The position numbers and the translations under genes are program-made. Under the pieces are notes generated by a model, which did not search any database, was not told the origin of the DNA, and saw nothing but the letters and a program-made list of their open reading frames with translations. A DNA stretch of 64,000 bases from a virus (lineage: Duplodnaviria; Caudoviricetes). Within the stretch, counting starts at the first letter, position 1; each line of letters starts with the position of its first letter. The stretch spans positions 96,001 through 160,000 of IMG/VR virus record IMGVR_UViG_3300020577_008610, one strand, 5' to 3'. Positions 622 to 63,198 of the stretch are shown one piece after another.

Positions 622-2985
622 CTAGAGAATGGAAGCCGCAATAGTGGCCAACTTGCTTCGTTCACCTTTGGTTAAGGTGACGTGGCCAGAGAGGTCATAG
701 GTTTTGAACTTCTCAATTGCCACGGTCAGGCCGTTAGACACTGAATCCACATACATATTGTCAATCTGCTCAATGTCCCCAGTCAGGACGATTTTGGTTC
801 CATCACCCACACGAGTGATGATGGTCTTCAACTCATGAGCATTGAGGTTCTGCGCCTCATCAATGATCATGAAGGCATTGGCGATAGACCTACCACGGAT
901 GTAGGTCATGGCTTCAACCTCGATGGTGCCATTCTCGAAGAGCATCTGGAGAGTCTCTTCGCCCCTCTTGCTCTTCTTGCCGTCAGCCGAAAGCAGGAAC
1001 CGGAGGTTGTCCTTGATCGGGGCAACCCATGGCTCCATCTTTTCCTCCAGAGTGTTATGGGTTACCACGAAATAGTCAGTAATATAAAGATGTTCCGGAT
1101 TGTCAACGAGAATGCACTGCATTTCAACTTTTTTTCCGGTTCTTTCAATCCCAACAATTCTTCGTCGGCGTTCCAGTTTGCGAAACTGGTAACGTTCACG
1201 CTTACGAGTTAGGCAGAACGGCTGGAACTGATCCTCCCAGAAGGATATGGAAATTGTGTATGCTCCTTTTAGTGCTGAGAACTTTGTATTGGCAGCTCCT
1301 CCGAGCGAGAAAACCAATTCCTTAAACCCATCTGCAAGGGCTTTAGAACAGGTTGTCAGGCTAACATCGGAACCATCTGCTGACACATAGCCATCTGTAT
1401 CCATTAGTCCTTGCAAGAGCGCAACCCTGTCTTGAATTGAGGCTGTCAGGTATTCAGCCGGGATGAATTTTGTGTACGAATTAGCCCCGGCAAGTCCGAG
1501 AGATTCTATTCCAGCTCGAACAATGTTGGAAACCCTTTTCTTTCGTCCAACATTGTCTGACATCACAAAAGACCAAGTTAAGCCCGACTTGTGACGCAAC
1601 ATTGCTCCACTCGGAAGAGAACGTTGAATCCTCTCTACGATTTCACTATCAGTAGAAGACAATTCAGTAGCATATCGCTGGGTTACACATCCATCACCAA
1701 GAATGGCGCCAAGGACATAAGGATCAATTGGAAGTTTGTGAACTGTCTGATACTCCACTGGTTTCACGTATTGCACAAAATGGTGCAGGTGTTCCTTTCC
1801 CGTAAGGAGATCAACTTCAATTTCCTTGGTTGACCGGGTTTTGGGAATTTCTTCGTGTGGCTTGTATGTGTTCCACGGATGGTCCTCGCAGCACTCAACT
1901 TCAGCTCCATCCTCAAAGATAAGCTTCAAAACCTCCTTTTGCCCTTTCGGAAAGACCTCCAGAACAGACGTTGGCTTACCATCCCGAGCAATCACCTGAT
2001 TACCCTTCTGGATTGCTCCCATTGTGGTCCACCCCGTCGGCGTTAATACCTTGGAGTAAAGTGGTTGAGGTCCCGGAAGAAATCCAATGTCTTTGCCCAA
2101 GGGCTGAATTGGACGGCACACGATGAGGCTCTTGTACCGCTTCTGGTCAATTACCTGATGGAGGCCAGCTGCAATGGCCAAGAGAGTCTTGCCGGTACCA
2201 GCAGAACCAACAATGGTCGCCAGGGAGATAGAAGGATCCATCAGAAGGTCGATGGCAAATTTCTGCTCCTTGTTTCTTCCTTCGATCTTTGAAGGTGCAA
2301 ACTCGGTGATTCCTTTGACCTTGCCACCCTTGTATCGCATGATGGCTGAAGACTCAGCTCCCTCCCTCTTTACAAGCAAGAACTGATTCTCGTAAAGGGC
2401 ACTCTTAACTTCTTCTGGAAGCTCTAAAACTCCTTCTCGATAAAACCTCTCTAGGTCATAGTCTCCAACCAAAGTAGTCTCGCCTGTGTACAAGCCAGAA
2501 ATAGACTCAGCCACATGTAGCTTTTTATAGTCATCAGCTAGAATGCCCAAAGCATGAGCCTTGAGTCGAAGTAAGATGTCCCTGGACACCAAGACCATCT
2601 CTGCGTCCGGGTTCTTTCGCTTGAAAGCCATACAGACCGCAAGAATCTGGTTGTCTCCAGATTTGCCTTCCAACTCCGATGGGATCAGTTCCTTCAGGTC
2701 TGAAAATCCAAGGGAGTTGAACGACAGAATCCGAAGCGACCCCTGACCTTCTCCAAGCGGAATAGGTTCATCAAATGCCTTGTGATCTTTTGTTATTTCC
2801 GTTAGCTTCCGAGAGGTCTCTCGGGCATGCCTACCCACTTCATCCTGACGGTCTTTGTGTCTGTCCAACTCCTCCAGGACAATCATAGGCAGAACCACGT
2901 CGTGCTCCTTGAAGGAGAACATGGCATTCGAGTCAGAGAGAAGAACGTTGGTGTCGAGGACAAAAGTTTTCTTGTTGTTGTTCAT
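622..2985 (-). CDS. phoH: PIN-domain PhoH-family ATPase interrupted by an intein
   Basis: N-terminal PIN (FVLDTNVLL), Walker A GSAGTGKT, GFLPG|TLEEKM, RGRS, IIDEAQN, GDIEQID. Confidence 0.95.
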   Translation of the reverse strand: MNNNKKTFVLDTNVLLSDSNAMFSFKEHDVVLPMIVLEELDRHKDRQDEVGRHARETSRKLTEITKDHKAFDEPIPLGEGQGSLRILSFNSLGFSDLKELIPSELEGKSGDNQILAVCMAFKRKNPDAEMVLVSRDILLRLKAHALGILADDYKKLHVAESISGLYTGETTLVGDYDLERFYREGVLELPEEVKSALYENQFLLVKREGAESSAIMRYKGGKVKGITEFAPSKIEGRNKEQKFAIDLLMDPSISLATIVGSAGTGKTLLAIAAGLHQVIDQKRYKSLIVCRPIQPLGKDIGFLPGPQPLYSKVLTPTGWTTMGAIQKGNQVIARDGKPTSVLEVFPKGQKEVLKLIFEDGAEVECCEDHPWNTYKPHEEIPKTRSTKEIEVDLLTGKEHLHHFVQYVKPVEYQTVHKLPIDPYVLGAILGDGCVTQRYATELSSTDSEIVERIQRSLPSGAMLRHKSGLTWSFVMSDNVGRKKRVSNIVRAGIESLGLAGANSYTKFIPAEYLTASIQDRVALLQGLMDTDGYVSADGSDVSLTTCSKALADGFKELVFSLGGAANTKFSALKGAYTISISFWEDQFQPFCLTRKRERYQFRKLERRRRIVGIERTGKKVEMQCILVDNPEHLYITDYFVVTHNTLEEKMEPWVAPIKDNLRFLLSADGKKSKRGEETLQMLFENGTIEVEAMTYIRGRSIANAFMIIDEAQNLNAHELKTIITRVGDGTKIVLTGDIEQIDNMYVDSVSNGLTVAIEKFKTYDLSGHVTLTKGERSKLATIAASIL
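1054..2070 (-). mobile_element. Class 3-type intein (339 aa) with LAGLIDADG homing endonuclease
   Basis: Splits GFLPG|TLEEK; starts PQPL, block B EDHPW, LGAILGDG and LQGLMDTDG, block F MQCILV, ends VTHN before Thr. Confidence 0.92.
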
Positions 2986-3057
2986 CGCATGTTATTTCTA
3001 AGCTGTGGCACTTGCAAGAACATTGGATTATACGTGAATGCCTTTTTTGCATCTAAC

Positions 3058-3426
3058 TTACAAGACGTTCTTTGAACCCTTCACTTGCTTCCCAGCAGCC
3101 TTCGTTGGGACAGTCTTCGGAGTCTCAACAACAGGAGGCGCAGCTGCCGGCTCTTCTGTTTCCTTAGCCACAGAAGACTCTACCGCCTGAGATTCGGAAA
3201 CTGAATCAGAAGCTTTTTCTTCAGCAATAATGACTGGTTCCGGAGTTTTTTCAGGCTCAGAAATGGCAACGACGGCAGGTGCTTGAGGTTGTACTTTCGG
3301 AGTGAAAGGAACAGCCAGCATGCCGTCGTAGCCAAGTGTGCGATGCGGGACGGATGGGTCCAATCCCTTTGAGATTGCGTCAGCAGCGATATGCAGCTTC
3401 ATACCCATAAGTATGAGCTGAAACAA
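3058..3426 (-). CDS. Hypothetical protein, Pro/Glu/Ala-rich low-complexity tail
   Basis: ORF packed between co-directional genes; start uncertain. Confidence 0.55.
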   Translation of the reverse strand: MFQLILMGMKLHIAADAISKGLDPSVPHRTLGYDGMLAVPFTPKVQPQAPAVVAISEPEKTPEPVIIAEEKASDSVSESQAVESSVAKETEEPAAAPPVVETPKTVPTKAAGKQVKGSKNVL

Positions 3427-3428
3427 AA

Positions 3429-3707
3429 TTACCCTGCTGGGGTTTCGGCCTTAGGTGCCTTCTTGGACTTGGTGGCATTCTTGGTCTTGCGAGTCTCTAC
3501 CGTTCCCTTGTCAGAAACCAAGGTCTCCTTCAGAATCAGGAAGGCCTGCTTCCGAAGCGAACGAAGTCCCTTGCGGACTCGAACTCCGGCTGAAACGTTG
3601 TGTTTGAGAGCATTTTTCTCAAGATCCTTTTGTAGCTCAGCTACATTTTGACAAAGCTCAGTCCACAGCGCCAATACCTTTGAATCACTTGTCGTTCCGT
3701 CACTCAT
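3429..3707 (-). CDS. Histone H1-like (Hc1-type) basic protein
   Basis: DLEKNALKHNVSAGVRVRKGLRSLRK resembles the Hc1 GNKAAGTRARK motif; Lys-rich tail; GGAG RBS. Confidence 0.6.
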   Translation of the reverse strand: MSDGTTSDSKVLALWTELCQNVAELQKDLEKNALKHNVSAGVRVRKGLRSLRKQAFLILKETLVSDKGTVETRKTKNATKSKKAPKAETPAG

Positions 3708-3797
3708 TGAGTTTACTCCTATATGCGATACGAGAACTTTGTACCGTATCAAGTAGTCTATTTTGGTTTTGGCAGGATTGTATCGGCAAATCGGAGA

Positions 3798-4322
3798 TTA
3801 TCTGTGGCTAATGGCTTCCCAGATAGCTTTTCCGATAGCGGCAAAGGCCCCGCCAACGATAAGCCAGACAGCTTTGCCCAACCAGTCACTCCAGGCGGAC
3901 TTGACCTTGATGACCGATTCCAGCTTTTCCAGGTCATCCCCAGCGATCTTCTTGAGCTTGGAGGTAGTTTCCACCTTCTTGCTCAAGTCATCGTCAGTTG
4001 AACTTAACTTTTTCAGAGAGTCGTTGAACTCCTTCATGTTTTTCTCATCGGCTGCAAGGTGTGCAGTATGAGACTTGACCATTTGCTTTATGTCCGTTTC
4101 AACCAATTTCACACGGGCATACAAGCCATCGTCTGGATTATAGAGTCCATCATGGATCTTATCAACCTTTTCGCTTGTTTCCTGCTGCTTTTCTTGGATG
4201 TGTTCAACGATAACCATCATCTTGTCGAACCCACCATTCAAAACAGGAGAAGTGTTGATTTTCTGTGCAATGCTTTCAACCATAAGCTGAAGCTGTTTAT
4301 TGTCAGATTTAGTGTCAGACAT
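3798..4322 (-). CDS. Coiled-coil protein with C-terminal transmembrane helix
   Basis: Heptad-rich body; WLGKAVWLIVGGAFAAIGKAIW; upstream TACTTA motif. Confidence 0.7.
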   Translation of the reverse strand: MSDTKSDNKQLQLMVESIAQKINTSPVLNGGFDKMMVIVEHIQEKQQETSEKVDKIHDGLYNPDDGLYARVKLVETDIKQMVKSHTAHLAADEKNMKEFNDSLKKLSSTDDDLSKKVETTSKLKKIAGDDLEKLESVIKVKSAWSDWLGKAVWLIVGGAFAAIGKAIWEAISHR

Positions 4323-4427: not shown

Positions 4428-5822
4428 ATGGCCTACAGTTCCTTCCGTGAAAAATCCGTCTTTTTGGCCGAAATGCAACAAGCCAATGAGAAAATGAAGA
4501 CCTTGCTCGGACGAATCAAGGTTGCTCTGAGTGAACAGGGGTATCCCCTTCGGAAAGACACCTACCACTTTCTTACTCGGGTCCTGGAGCCGTCCAACCG
4601 AGCAGAGCGGACCCTGTTCATGCTTTTGTTCCAGTCGGCCTACAGAAGCGAACTGCTATCTGCTGGGAGCTCCTACCTTGCCGTTCGGTTTGCTAACGAA
4701 TTCATCCAAGAATTGGTGAAACATCCGGAGCTTATCTCCAGGAATGAAGTTGAACTGATGACCGAGTATGAGGAGCTCGTTGCCGACCTAAACCGCCAGA
4801 TTACCTCAATTTCTTTGCCGGTGACGGAAGAGTGGATGCAGCAAGAGATCGAACGCATCTGTGAGGATCCCATTTTGGCCGAAGCTGTTTGGCAAGCCAT
4901 CTCTGTTTCGGGCCTTGAAGGCAAGATCCATGTGGAAGATGGCACACTCCCCAACTACGTGGTGGAACAAAAGTCAGGATATTACTTCAGTGTCCTGAAA
5001 CCATTCAAGTTCATGCTGCCAAAAAACGGCTGCTGGGAAGCTCAGAACGTCAAGGTCATGCTGGTTGATGGCATCCTGGAACGGGTAAGCGAACTGGACA
5101 AGATCCTGAACGGAGCCATGCAGACCAAGATTCCGACTTTGCTGGTAGCTCATGGGTTTTCCGAGGAAGTGGTTGCTACGATCAAAGCCAACGTAGACTA
5201 CGGCAAATTTAACATCATGCCCGTCAGGCTTACCTCCGACCTGGAGTCCCTGAACGTTTTGAACGATATTGCCGTGGTCTGTGGAGCTGATGTGGTTTCT
5301 ACCCTAAAGGGACAGATGGTGGTATTTACCGAGTTCGACTCACTTCCCATCGTTGAGAGAATTCGACTCACTTCCCAAGAGCTGACTATCGAAAATGCCA
5401 AAACAAGGAGGGCCGTTTCTAACCACCTCCGAATGCTCCTGGAGAAAAGGCAAAATCAATCGGAGATATCCGATATCTCCGATCTGATTGACCGTAGAAT
5501 CCAAGGGCTCATCTCGGCCGCTGTTACCCTTCGGCTTCCCAACATGCCCGCTTCCAAAAGGGATAATGCCAAGGTCAAGATCGACGTTGCCCTTCGAAGC
5601 GCAAAGACCCTCCTGAATCTCGGAAAGGCAAACCTTCAGGATGTCAAAGGTTCCCCAGCACCCCATGGGAGCCTCCAGGGAGCCTTCTGGAAGGCTTTGA
5701 AGGAGGTGCAAAGGGAGATTAACACCATGCCCACTCTGAGCGCCTATACCGGTATTTACTTCGCCGGAAAGACCATCCTATCCATGATGACAACAGGGGG
5801 GTTGGTGGAAATTGTTACTTAG
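4428..5822 (+). CDS. Divergent GroEL/Cpn60-like chaperonin
   Basis: GKIHVEDG, VMLVDG..I..VSEL, PTLLVAHGFSEEVVAT..AN, LNDIAVVCGA match the GroEL intermediate/apical domains; GDGTT motif absent. Confidence 0.8.
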   Translation: MAYSSFREKSVFLAEMQQANEKMKTLLGRIKVALSEQGYPLRKDTYHFLTRVLEPSNRAERTLFMLLFQSAYRSELLSAGSSYLAVRFANEFIQELVKHPELISRNEVELMTEYEELVADLNRQITSISLPVTEEWMQQEIERICEDPILAEAVWQAISVSGLEGKIHVEDGTLPNYVVEQKSGYYFSVLKPFKFMLPKNGCWEAQNVKVMLVDGILERVSELDKILNGAMQTKIPTLLVAHGFSEEVVATIKANVDYGKFNIMPVRLTSDLESLNVLNDIAVVCGADVVSTLKGQMVVFTEFDSLPIVERIRLTSQELTIENAKTRRAVSNHLRMLLEKRQNQSEISDISDLIDRRIQGLISAAVTLRLPNMPASKRDNAKVKIDVALRSAKTLLNLGKANLQDVKGSPAPHGSLQGAFWKALKEVQREINTMPTLSAYTGIYFAGKTILSMMTTGGLVEIVT

Positions 5823-25358: not shown

Positions 25359-25775
25359 GGTGTGCACCCTATCCCTTTCAATTGAGTTGTGGTATACTTA
25401 GAAACGGAACTCCCGGTTGTGCCACAACCAAAAGACAAAGCCAAGGCTTTTGTCGCCTTGGCTACCGGGATAAGGTTCGTGAGTGACCGAGAGCAGGAAT
25501 ACTCACGTGAGGTACAGACGGACGCCAAGAGCAGAAAGTCCATGGCCGTGAGAGATGTTTGATGGTTTCTCATCTCTTTTCGGTTGGGGTTCCGGAACCC
25601 AAAGACCATCTCTCGCCCTGGGGGTAAAGGGTAGTCCAGATAAGTGAGCCCAAGCTTCCTGGAACTTGCAACTTGTGGTCTCGGTGTGGTTCAGAGGTTG
25701 CATGTGTGTTTCTTGATTGAAGGTTCTGGAATACCTCTTGAATCGCTTGGTTGGGATCCGTCAATTCCCAACACC

Positions 25776-58666: not shown

Positions 58667-58796
58667 GTTATGCATGATTTGATGGAAATTTGAGCGCATC
58701 ACCATGCTAGTAAATGTAGTTTGATGTCGAGATTCTGCATCAAGCAATTGCTCTAACCACAGAGCGTAGCTTCCTGAGCTACAATCCAACAAAGTG

Positions 58797-59137
58797 TGTG
58801 CTTCTGCCCATGAATGCTGGTCCCGTTTAAGGGGTATTTAACCCCCTTTGGTTTTGTTCTGGCTCCTATCCGAGCCTAGGATGCTGTGGCATCCTTAGCA
58901 ACCGGATGGACGCTGTGTTGCTGGTCAGGCTCCACAGGAGCAATGAAATTGCTCACGATTTAATGGTTTGTTCAATTAAGCCAGGCTCCCTCAGCCTTCT
59001 GCTTTTTGCTACCAGGGAAAAGTTTTCACTCTTTTCCTCTGTCTGCCACCACAAGGTACTTTCACCTACAAATCGCTTCGTAAGGTTACTCCCACTAGGA
59101 GAGTCGAGGTCTCGCAACCCCGTAGGGCAGATGCACA
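58797..59137 (-). ncRNA. Unidentified ~340-nt structured ncRNA
   Basis: Terminal helix 58797-58809/59125-59137 (12 of 13 bp) enclosing many hairpins; no credible ORF. Confidence 0.6.
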
Positions 59138-62212: not shown

Positions 62213-62221
62213 ATTAGGAAA

Positions 62222-62422
62222 CGGTTGGGGTTATCGTGCTACCGCTTCACAAGCACCCAGGTTCTCCCACTGTCCTGGCAGTGTTCAGCCCAGGAGTAAC
62301 CTTTTAAGGGGGTACCTGAGCCTATTGGTCGGGAGATGGTGGTCCTTGCCACCTCCTTGGTTCCAAGGTTGGTCTCAATCCAGATTTCAGGGGCCCATAT
62401 ACTGGCCAGCGTTGAATTGAGA
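62222..62422 (-). ncRNA. Structured inter-tRNA RNA (~200 nt)
   Basis: Nested helices TCTCCC/GGGAGA, GGCTCAGG/CCTGGGCT, CACTG/CAGTG, CCTTGG/CCAAGG. Confidence 0.4.
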
Positions 62423-62498
62423 TGGTAGCCCCTGTGAGGATTGAACTCACCTGTACCGGTTTGTAGGACCGGCGCCCTCACCAGAGTGCGAAGGAGCT
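62423..62498 (-). tRNA. tRNA-Val(TAC)
   Basis: Cloverleaf, CCA, C at position 33. Confidence 0.85.
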
Positions 62499-62504
62499 AA
62501 ACTG

Positions 62505-62935
62505 ATTATTTCCGAGTCATTCCCGGCGCAGTACCACTTCCAAGGTTGCTTTCGCTTCACCTTAGAGGGCCTGTTTCCCACCCTTTGCGGAATGGTAAGC
62601 CGTCTTTACTCGCTGGTTATCACCCTACAGGGCTACGTGCTCCCTGCTCGGCAACCCATGAGCCACATTAGTAACCCCAATCCCAGGGCGTGGTTACCAG
62701 AAATTGACTTCTGGCTGGTGTCAAATACTCCCGATTTTCATCGTACGGACCAGGAGTGTTTGGCCACTCCCTGACATACAGGATCTCTGTCTAGGTCCTA
62801 GAGGTTATTTTACGTCGGATTAGCGACGTTCCGTTGCCCAGTTTGGGCAACCAGGCATGAACCTTTTAAGGTTCCGGAATTGAGGTTGGTTTCTCTTGAG
62901 TCTGTCAGCACCTCAAAACTGACAGAAAGAGACTA
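62505..62935 (-). ncRNA. Large structured ncRNA (~430 nt), possibly GOLLD-like
   Basis: 5' pseudoknotted hairpin, long-range ATTCCGG/CCGGGAAT helix, many hairpins. Confidence 0.6.
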
Positions 62936-62937
62936 GT

Positions 62938-63023
62938 TGTCAAAGAGCAAAGAGTCCTCGGACTCTTGGAGGGAGCAGCCCTCCGACGTTTTTAAACTTA
63001 GCATCGGTCTCTTTGGCCGTCAA
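62938..63023 (-). promoter_or_regulatory. Sigma70 promoter with rrn-type hairpin/boxA leader
   Basis: TTGACG(63023-63018)-N17-TAAGTT, two hairpins, TGCTCTTTGACA (62949-62938). Confidence 0.75.
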
Positions 63024-63198
63024 GGCGACCGGTTACGATTTCACTCCAAGAAGCGCTCGAAGCCAATCGGCCTTGGTGAGCACCATGTAAAGCACAGTGA
63101 GTCCCAGGAAGACCAGGACGAAAGCAAGGGCTCCAACGAGCCAAGAGAGAGCGGTTTTCAGTGCGGACGGAATTTCCATGAGGTTCTCCTAGCTGTAA

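Follow-up and report, generated by a model that had tools for sequence, protein, structure and literature searches.

A non-coding stretch directly upstream of tRNA-Val(UAC), within the 64,000 nt of phage DNA analysed here (the window), appears to encode a structured RNA, which we call type A. Compared with Rfam, it would be a previously uncatalogued structured non-coding RNA, and it could be among the 10,006 viral candidate RNAs of PMC10690425. On the comparisons described below, type A is narrowly distributed, being present in three lineages of one huge T4-like phage clade.

Genomic setting

The window covers 96001-160000 of an IMG/VR phage record of 189 kb, for which CheckV gives a completeness of 48%. 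Genes for a T4-type gp23-like major head protein, a portal and a terminase are present in the record. The capsid protein shows 48% identity to that of LR756508, an uncultured huge phage of 484 kb, and 46% identity to the counterpart in Flavobacterium phage immuto. There are 25 tRNA genes across the entire record and 17 within the window, the latter mostly on the - strand. On this strand, a small ORF ending at 63033 is followed by the non-coding stretch (~490 nt overall from promoter to tRNA), then by tRNA-Val(UAC) at 62423-62498 (ARAGORN; Rfam tRNA match at 62426-62498), whose first base comes directly after the last base of the RNA model, and then by tRNA-Lys. All tRNAs adjoining type A lie on the same strand, and this setting, in a phage genome next to tRNA genes, is that of RNAs of the GOLLD and ROOL kind. 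The first-pass annotation had placed the RNA at the head of the tRNA operon; the RNA is indeed promoter-proximal and directly upstream of tRNA-Val and tRNA-Lys, but tRNA-Gly and others lie upstream of it on the same strand.

Some neighboring features were also recorded. The spacer between tRNA-Val and tRNA-Lys (62213-62422, - strand) measures 210 nt in the window versus ~54 nt in the related contigs L098 and L110; it is no better folded than its shuffles (z = -1.12), and could therefore be inserted DNA or the remains of a gene. The small hydrophobic ORF at 63033-63179 (- strand) lacks ~89-90 nt (at 63071-63072) that L098, L099 and the other members of the clade possess, and encodes 48 aa in the window versus 78-79 aa in those relatives. 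Outside the window, ARAGORN identified a tmRNA on the - strand (record positions 25395-25745) with the tag peptide GADALQMAA. A PIN-PhoH fusion protein encoded at 622-2985 (- strand) carries a LAGLIDADG/Hom_end homing-endonuclease segment in mid-protein (residues ~508-566), which suggests an intein.

Extent, folding and coding potential of type A

The conserved type A core occupies 62499-62830 on the - strand (~330 nt) and consists of a hairpin, P1, a small hairpin (CC-UCUA-GG), a variable middle domain and a 3' domain. Homology with the diverged contigs L110 and L107 spans the entire region from P1 (62812-62829; ACGUCG/CGACGU with the loop CUAAUC, in which L107 has one G-C to C-G flip) through 62499. 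The middle region separates P1 from the 3' domain by 138-158 nt; its sequence and predicted topology differ among the lineages, and no fold common to them was found. Upstream of the core, variable hairpins fill the interval to the leader (62831-62879, - strand), namely GUUGCCCA/UGGGCAAC at 62833-62851 and GAACCUU/AAGGUUC inside 62859-62877, the latter 19 nt being absent from L099; L110 and L107 have other hairpins at that place. The many hairpins reported earlier are present in the sequence and the shape is conserved in diverged phages, in agreement with the claim of a structured - strand RNA. The proposal of a single ~430-nt RNA held as to its non-coding nature but not as to its unity, since the region is composed of a leader and the ~330-nt core, and since L098 has the leader in front of an unrelated RNA.

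Folding energies were compared with those of shuffled sequences, the check suggested in the earlier annotation, and this comparison supported the structured RNA: the 537-nt non-coding stretch reached -198.5 kcal/mol versus a shuffle mean of -167.1 (z = -4.29), with 0 of 100 shuffles as good, and a 362-nt stretch gave z = -3.73. The 3' domain alone folded no better than its shuffles (z = -1.07).

The earlier statement that the stretch holds no credible ORF was also borne out. No sense ORF in it exceeds 44 codons, and the longest open frame is antisense. An antisense coding function was considered and rejected on account of stops in the L107 homolog and of evenly spread substitutions (21/21/23 and 26/17/18 by codon position of that frame), which show no 3-base periodicity. 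No ORF is conserved among the homologs, and type A does not code for protein.

Homologs and distribution

Homologs were reached through contigs from Logan, ENA and JGI that carry the two flanking proteins. A clade of such contigs (L099, L100, L114-L119, L121 and L122) is 95-98% identical to the window across the element. Two diverged homologs are collinear with it, L107 at ~249-578 (nhmmer E = 6e-84) and L110 at 3170-3571 (E = 4e-80); their copies of the neighboring 256-aa protein are 69% and 57% identical to that of the window, respectively. Within the 3' domain, 65 (L110) and 61 (L107) of ~170 columns deviate from the window (~62-64% identity).

The surroundings of the core differ among the three lineages. 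The type A RNA of L110 coincides exactly with the 402 nt that separate tRNA-Leu(UAA) from tRNA-Val(UAC), and stands there between two tRNAs without promoter or boxA. A covariance model of the last 170 nt (R1, from five sequences with a hand-checked structure) ends at 3572 in this contig and tRNA-Val starts at 3572/3573, leaving zero spacer as in the window. The 3' end of type A consequently abuts tRNA-Val in two diverged lineages. In L107, type A follows an RNA of another family (type B, see below) and is itself followed by a 520-nt non-coding stretch before tRNA-Val, with no tRNA at the junction.

Three side observations concern these contigs. A weak tRNA-like signal in the variable 5' part of L110 (3205-3272; 18.9 bits, E = 0.23) overlaps P1 on its 5' strand and could reflect either a degenerate tRNA or a chance match. 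In L107, a promoter-like TTGACA-N17-TAGACT occurs ~45 nt past the type A end. The non-coding stretches L107:578-1097 and L112:4860-5145, both upstream of tRNA-Val, have a short block in common, GGUAGAGUGAACGUACCC, and may represent a further RNA module.

Searches outside these contigs yielded little. By blastn, none of 50,697 phage records matched type A, and the 189-kb record contains a single copy. Blastn and R1 found nothing in two sets of 18 and 50 capsid-related IMG/VR records, most of them fragments in which the tRNA island is probably missing. Five DNA patterns (the leader, the tRNA-Val 3' half and two core motifs) gave 0 matches against viral contigs, as did two scans of prokaryote genome contigs. 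A scan of JGI metagenomes recovered one near-identical copy, L122; another match, L123, lies inside a DNA polymerase gene and was rejected as chance. With its filters off, R1 found nothing in L098, L106, L108, L111, L112 and L124. When LR756508, LR756511, Flavobacterium phage immuto and Microcystis phage Mel-JY01 were searched, a 16-bit partial match to R1 was taken as chance, as it had neither the inner domain nor a tRNA context. Relatives of the upstream 139-aa protein in L002, L104 and L105 have no RNA gap, the 256-aa protein family also occurs in phages without type A, and no gene among the contigs compared co-occurs specifically with type A.

Structure and covariation of the 3' domain

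The conserved 3' domain (62499-62653, - strand) is 155 nt long, with eight helices and a GNRA tetraloop. H1 (62642-62651/62624-62632) precedes the closing helix H2 (UGAU/AUCA, 62619-62622/62503-62506), inside which lie CGAGU/ACUCG (H3, 62608-62612/62513-62517), CGGC/GCCG (H4, 62599-62602/62524-62527), the hairpin CCAUUCC..GGGUGG (H5, 62589-62595/62578-62583) and a three-helix arm formed by H6 (62568-62573/62529-62535), H7 (62559-62566/62539-62546) and H8 (62554-62555/62548-62549). The last of these is a 2-bp stem capped by the loop GAAA, and across the three lineages the tetraloop reads GAAA, GUAA or GUGA, which is GNRA every time. The unpaired stretches UGCCGAG, UAGGNUGAUAACC and GGAAAU are nearly invariant. 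A local pairing of GGGUUG with UGAUAACC was tried and rejected, being broken in L110 and L107.

R1 scored 202.5 bits on the window, 159.5 on L110 and 157.5 on L107. In an alignment of four distinct sequences from the three lineages, which was fitted to the R1 structure itself, 94.2% of the pair cells hold standard pairs. In the same model-fitted alignment, 18 of the 43 pairs are changed on both sides, versus 1-7 in controls slid by 1-3 columns, and none of 500 shuffles reached the observed pair values. Compensatory changes are concentrated in H4, where 4 of 4 pairs are changed on both sides, and in H7 (7 of 8 pairs). Between the window and its close relative L114, the pair is retained in five of six stem substitutions. 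The covariation among homologs that the first-pass annotation had called for was therefore found, within the limits of four sequences and a model-fitted alignment, and the base pairs of the 3' domain appear to be kept by compensatory change, as in a structured non-coding RNA gene.

The leader module and its pseudoknot

The leader module (62880-63023, - strand) consists of a promoter-like site, two hairpins, the boxA-like box TGCTCTTTGACAAC and a hairpin with a pseudoknot. The promoter-like site (62995-63023), as read from its letters, combines TTGACG (63018-63023), N17 and TAAGTT (62995-63000) and is probably sigma-70-like. It goes unlisted in a strict sigma-70 scan, since its second hexamer agrees at only 3 of 6 positions; in L098, L108 and L112, the leader is likewise preceded by the layout TTGAC-N17-TAnnnT. 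Leader hairpins 1 (GGAGGG/CCCTCC, 62968-62984) and 2 (AAGAGTCC/GGACTCTT, 62950-62967) are both kept in L098 with a changed loop. Hairpin 2 was scored as terminator-like in a scan because a T-rich run, the T-rich box, comes after it. The box TGCTCTTTGACAAC (62936-62949), which we take to be close to E. coli rrn boxA and to be a putative antitermination box, has the counterparts CGTTCTCTGAAAAC in L098, TGCTCTCTGACAAC in L108 and CGCTCTTTGACAAC in L112. In four diverged phages, large RNA genes are preceded by a promoter-like site, followed by one or two hairpins and then by the boxA-like GCTCT(T/C)TGA(C/A)AAC (window 62936-63023, - strand; L098:2455-2545; L108:2855-2945; L112:4660-4735). Leaders of rRNA operons (boxB-boxA-boxC) likewise present hairpins and then a boxA-like box ahead of untranslated RNA genes; the likeness is limited to the leader module and does not extend to the type A core.

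The hairpin downstream of the box (62880-62932) has an outer stem, UCUCUU/AAGAGA (62927-62932/62892-62897), an inner stem, UCUGUCAG/CUGACAGA (62919-62926/62901-62908), and a loop (62909-62918) whose UUGAGGU (62910-62916) is complementary to ACCUCAA at 62880-62886, allowing an H-type pseudoknot. This pairing had been pointed out earlier and the sequence is as described there. In L098, the outer stem reads UCUCUC/GAGAGA, a U-A to C-G change, and the inner stem is entirely different (CCCGG/CCGGG); despite this replacement, both the loop GAGGU and the downstream ACCUC are retained, which supports the pseudoknot as a credible structure on comparative grounds. Neither type B in L108 and L112 nor type A in L110 has this hairpin in front of it. 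Being common to the window and L098, it is a feature of the leader and not a part of the conserved RNA. To our knowledge, a hairpin-pseudoknot following a boxA-like box has no counterpart in rrn leaders.

A long-range helix between 62874-62880 and 62519-62526, also part of the initial description, is contradicted on both of its sides. Its 5' strand lies inside the 19-nt hairpin at 62859-62877 that is missing from the 97%-identical L099, and its 3' strand overlaps GCCG at 62524-62527, the very strand that pairs with CGGC at 62599-62602 in H4.

A shared slot and the type B RNA

The flanks of the element in the window and in L098 are 85-95% identical and the leader is the same, yet unrelated RNAs of similar length fill the slot: in L098, the whole body from the leader to tRNA-Val is a type B RNA (2545-2963). 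Members of the type B family were also found in L108 (~2945-3240) and L109 and in L111 (~3540-4024), with the 3' part in L107 (1-240) and the 5' part in L112 (~4735-4860). Its conserved 5' part is GUGUUUCCAGCUUU...GCUGGUGGUGGAGGG and its conserved 3' part is CAGCGAAAGGUCAC...GCCGUGGAUAUGCUGCACGG; type B had no match in Rfam. In L108 and L112, the leader layout precedes type B without the pseudoknot hairpin.

Type B (L098, L108, L111) and a further RNA of the window phage, at 58670-59137, resemble type A in belonging to the same clade, in lying within tRNA islands on the strand of the tRNAs and in their similar size. No similarity of type A to either was detected by blastn, nhmmer or R1, and on these comparisons the three are separate families.

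Comparison with known RNA families

No Rfam 15 family matched the type A region when the whole window was searched by cmscan at the gathering score, nor at E<=10 when 1.4 kb around it and the 446-nt stretch alone were used; the copies in L110, L107 and L098 returned tRNAs or chance-level matches only. Covariance models of GOLLD and ROOL had no match at E<=10 in the window stretch or in those three copies, and manA and raiA had none at E<=10 in the 446-nt stretch, where filters were most permissive, or in L110. Models of RNase P RNA, group I and II introns, tmRNA, self-cleaving ribozymes and HEARO also failed to match. As far as these models can see, type A is therefore none of GOLLD, ROOL, manA, raiA, HEARO, RNase P RNA, an intron, tmRNA or a known ribozyme. 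The tentative kinship with GOLLD or ROOL thus found no backing, even with the 446-nt stretch searched on its own, and the strings that had been likened to the GOLLD 3' domain are type A's own helix strand GCGAG, hairpin loop CCGCAAAGG and GNRA-capped hairpin GCGAAAGC. The other possibility allowed at that time, a new class, agrees with the lack of any Rfam match.

The tRNA cluster of phage T4 includes stable non-tRNA RNAs, C and D (species 1 and 2; ~120-140 nt), which are cut from tRNA precursor transcripts by tRNA-processing enzymes. Type A is comparable in being a non-tRNA RNA among tRNA genes, in a phage that is also T4-type by its capsid, but RNAs C and D are much smaller and blastn of type A against the phage collection gave no match.

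Similarities to GOLLD and ROOL are of a general kind. These large phage RNAs occur near tRNA islands and are possibly co-transcribed with the tRNAs (PMC5737381); GOLLD has a conserved 3' region and a variable 5' region, and both GOLLD and ROOL form RNA-only cages (bioRxiv 10.1101/2024.12.08.627333). Like them, type A would be a large, multi-junction, protein-free-looking phage RNA beside a tRNA island, and, as in GOLLD, a conserved 3' part is joined to a variable 5' part. Its core is much smaller (~330 nt versus 581 nt for ROOL and >800 nt for GOLLD), and it does not match the ROOL Rfam model with its six multistem junctions, three pseudoknots and ~581 nt.

A proposed role and its alternatives

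We consider it fairly probable, with some reserve, that type A is a discrete stable non-coding RNA that is cut from the tRNA transcript and acts in trans. It would form the opening segment of a tRNA transcript initiated at the sigma-70-like promoter, and the transcript would pass through the rRNA-operon-like leader with its hairpins, boxA-like box and hairpin-pseudoknot. RNase P cleaves tRNA 5' ends in polycistronic precursors, and a cut at the 5' end of tRNA-Val would generate the 3' end of type A; in L110, the processing of tRNA-Leu would also generate its 5' end and release a discrete stable molecule. The zero-spacer junction with tRNA-Val, the inter-tRNA position in L110 and the precedents of RNase P and T4 lead us to infer co-transcription of type A with the tRNAs, followed by its release as a separate RNA by the enzymes that process tRNAs. 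The working part may be the conserved 3' domain, which would bind a partner (protein or RNA), with the 5' half as a tolerant scaffold; the conserved internal loops and the GNRA loop would suit tertiary contacts or partner binding. Type A would act during infection, probably within the tRNA and translation programme of the phage.

It is also conceivable, if rather unlikely, that the RNA serves only in cis, as a leader or spacer of the tRNA transcript that aids antitermination, folding or ordered tRNA processing and has no life after processing. Its place directly between the promoter-like, boxA-like leader and tRNA-Val, the contact of its end with the tRNA and the unrelated RNA behind the same leader in L098, as though any folded filler sufficed, are what such a role would predict. 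A spacer, however, would have no need of the conserved internal loops (UGAUAACC, GGAAAU), the GNRA loop and eight compensated helices at ~62-64% identity, and the leaderless L110 core between two tRNAs and the L107 copy, behind another RNA and 520 nt from tRNA-Val, do not occupy a spacer's position. The swap between the window and L098 could instead be read as insertion of a selfish or mobile RNA cassette or its relic (something like an intron, or a guide RNA whose nuclease has been lost) and not as phage use, and the block is missing from L124, which is close to the window by its downstream gene; HNH genes are also present in some of these islands. We regard this as quite unlikely, since no intron, HEARO or other mobile-element RNA matched, no gene is interrupted, no flanking repeats were seen and the 189-kb record has no second copy, and since a structure preserved through evolution in three lineages points to selection acting on the RNA. 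A ribozyme, for instance one that is self-cleaving or processes tRNAs and so sets its own or the tRNA end, is very unlikely in our estimate: size and multi-helix junctions fall within the catalytic-RNA range and the tRNA 5' junction is exact in two lineages, but host RNase P already accounts for that junction, L107 has no tRNA there, and no ribozyme, intron or RNase P model matched at E<=10. Hardly credible is a non-functional intergenic stretch that folds by chance. The 3' domain alone is indeed no better than shuffles and the distribution is narrow, but homology is collinear in phages where identity of the neighboring protein has dropped to 57-69%, and compensatory changes affect 18 of 43 pairs.

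On a broader reading, the slot from the boxA leader to tRNA-Val would be a hypervariable cassette site holding an exchangeable arsenal of unrelated folded RNAs (type A in the window, type B in L098), in which type A would be either a GOLLD/ROOL-like RNA-only assembly or a decoy that shields the phage tRNAs or the translation apparatus from host tRNA-targeting defences. We consider this reading, taken as a whole, unlikely; if true, large folded RNAs would be a counter-defence currency of huge phages.

Implications

Large many-junction RNAs are rare in bacteria and phages, and the few that are known (rRNA, RNase P RNA, introns, GOLLD and ROOL) are biochemically unusual. Type A would add a compact new family to the phage tRNA-island setting, and it is small enough for direct structural study. 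One huge T4-like phage clade appears to keep several unrelated families of large RNAs, and a given site may be occupied by one family or by another. This makes it a testable question why big folded RNAs lie beside tRNAs, and whether they may be interchangeable accessories with a fast turnover.
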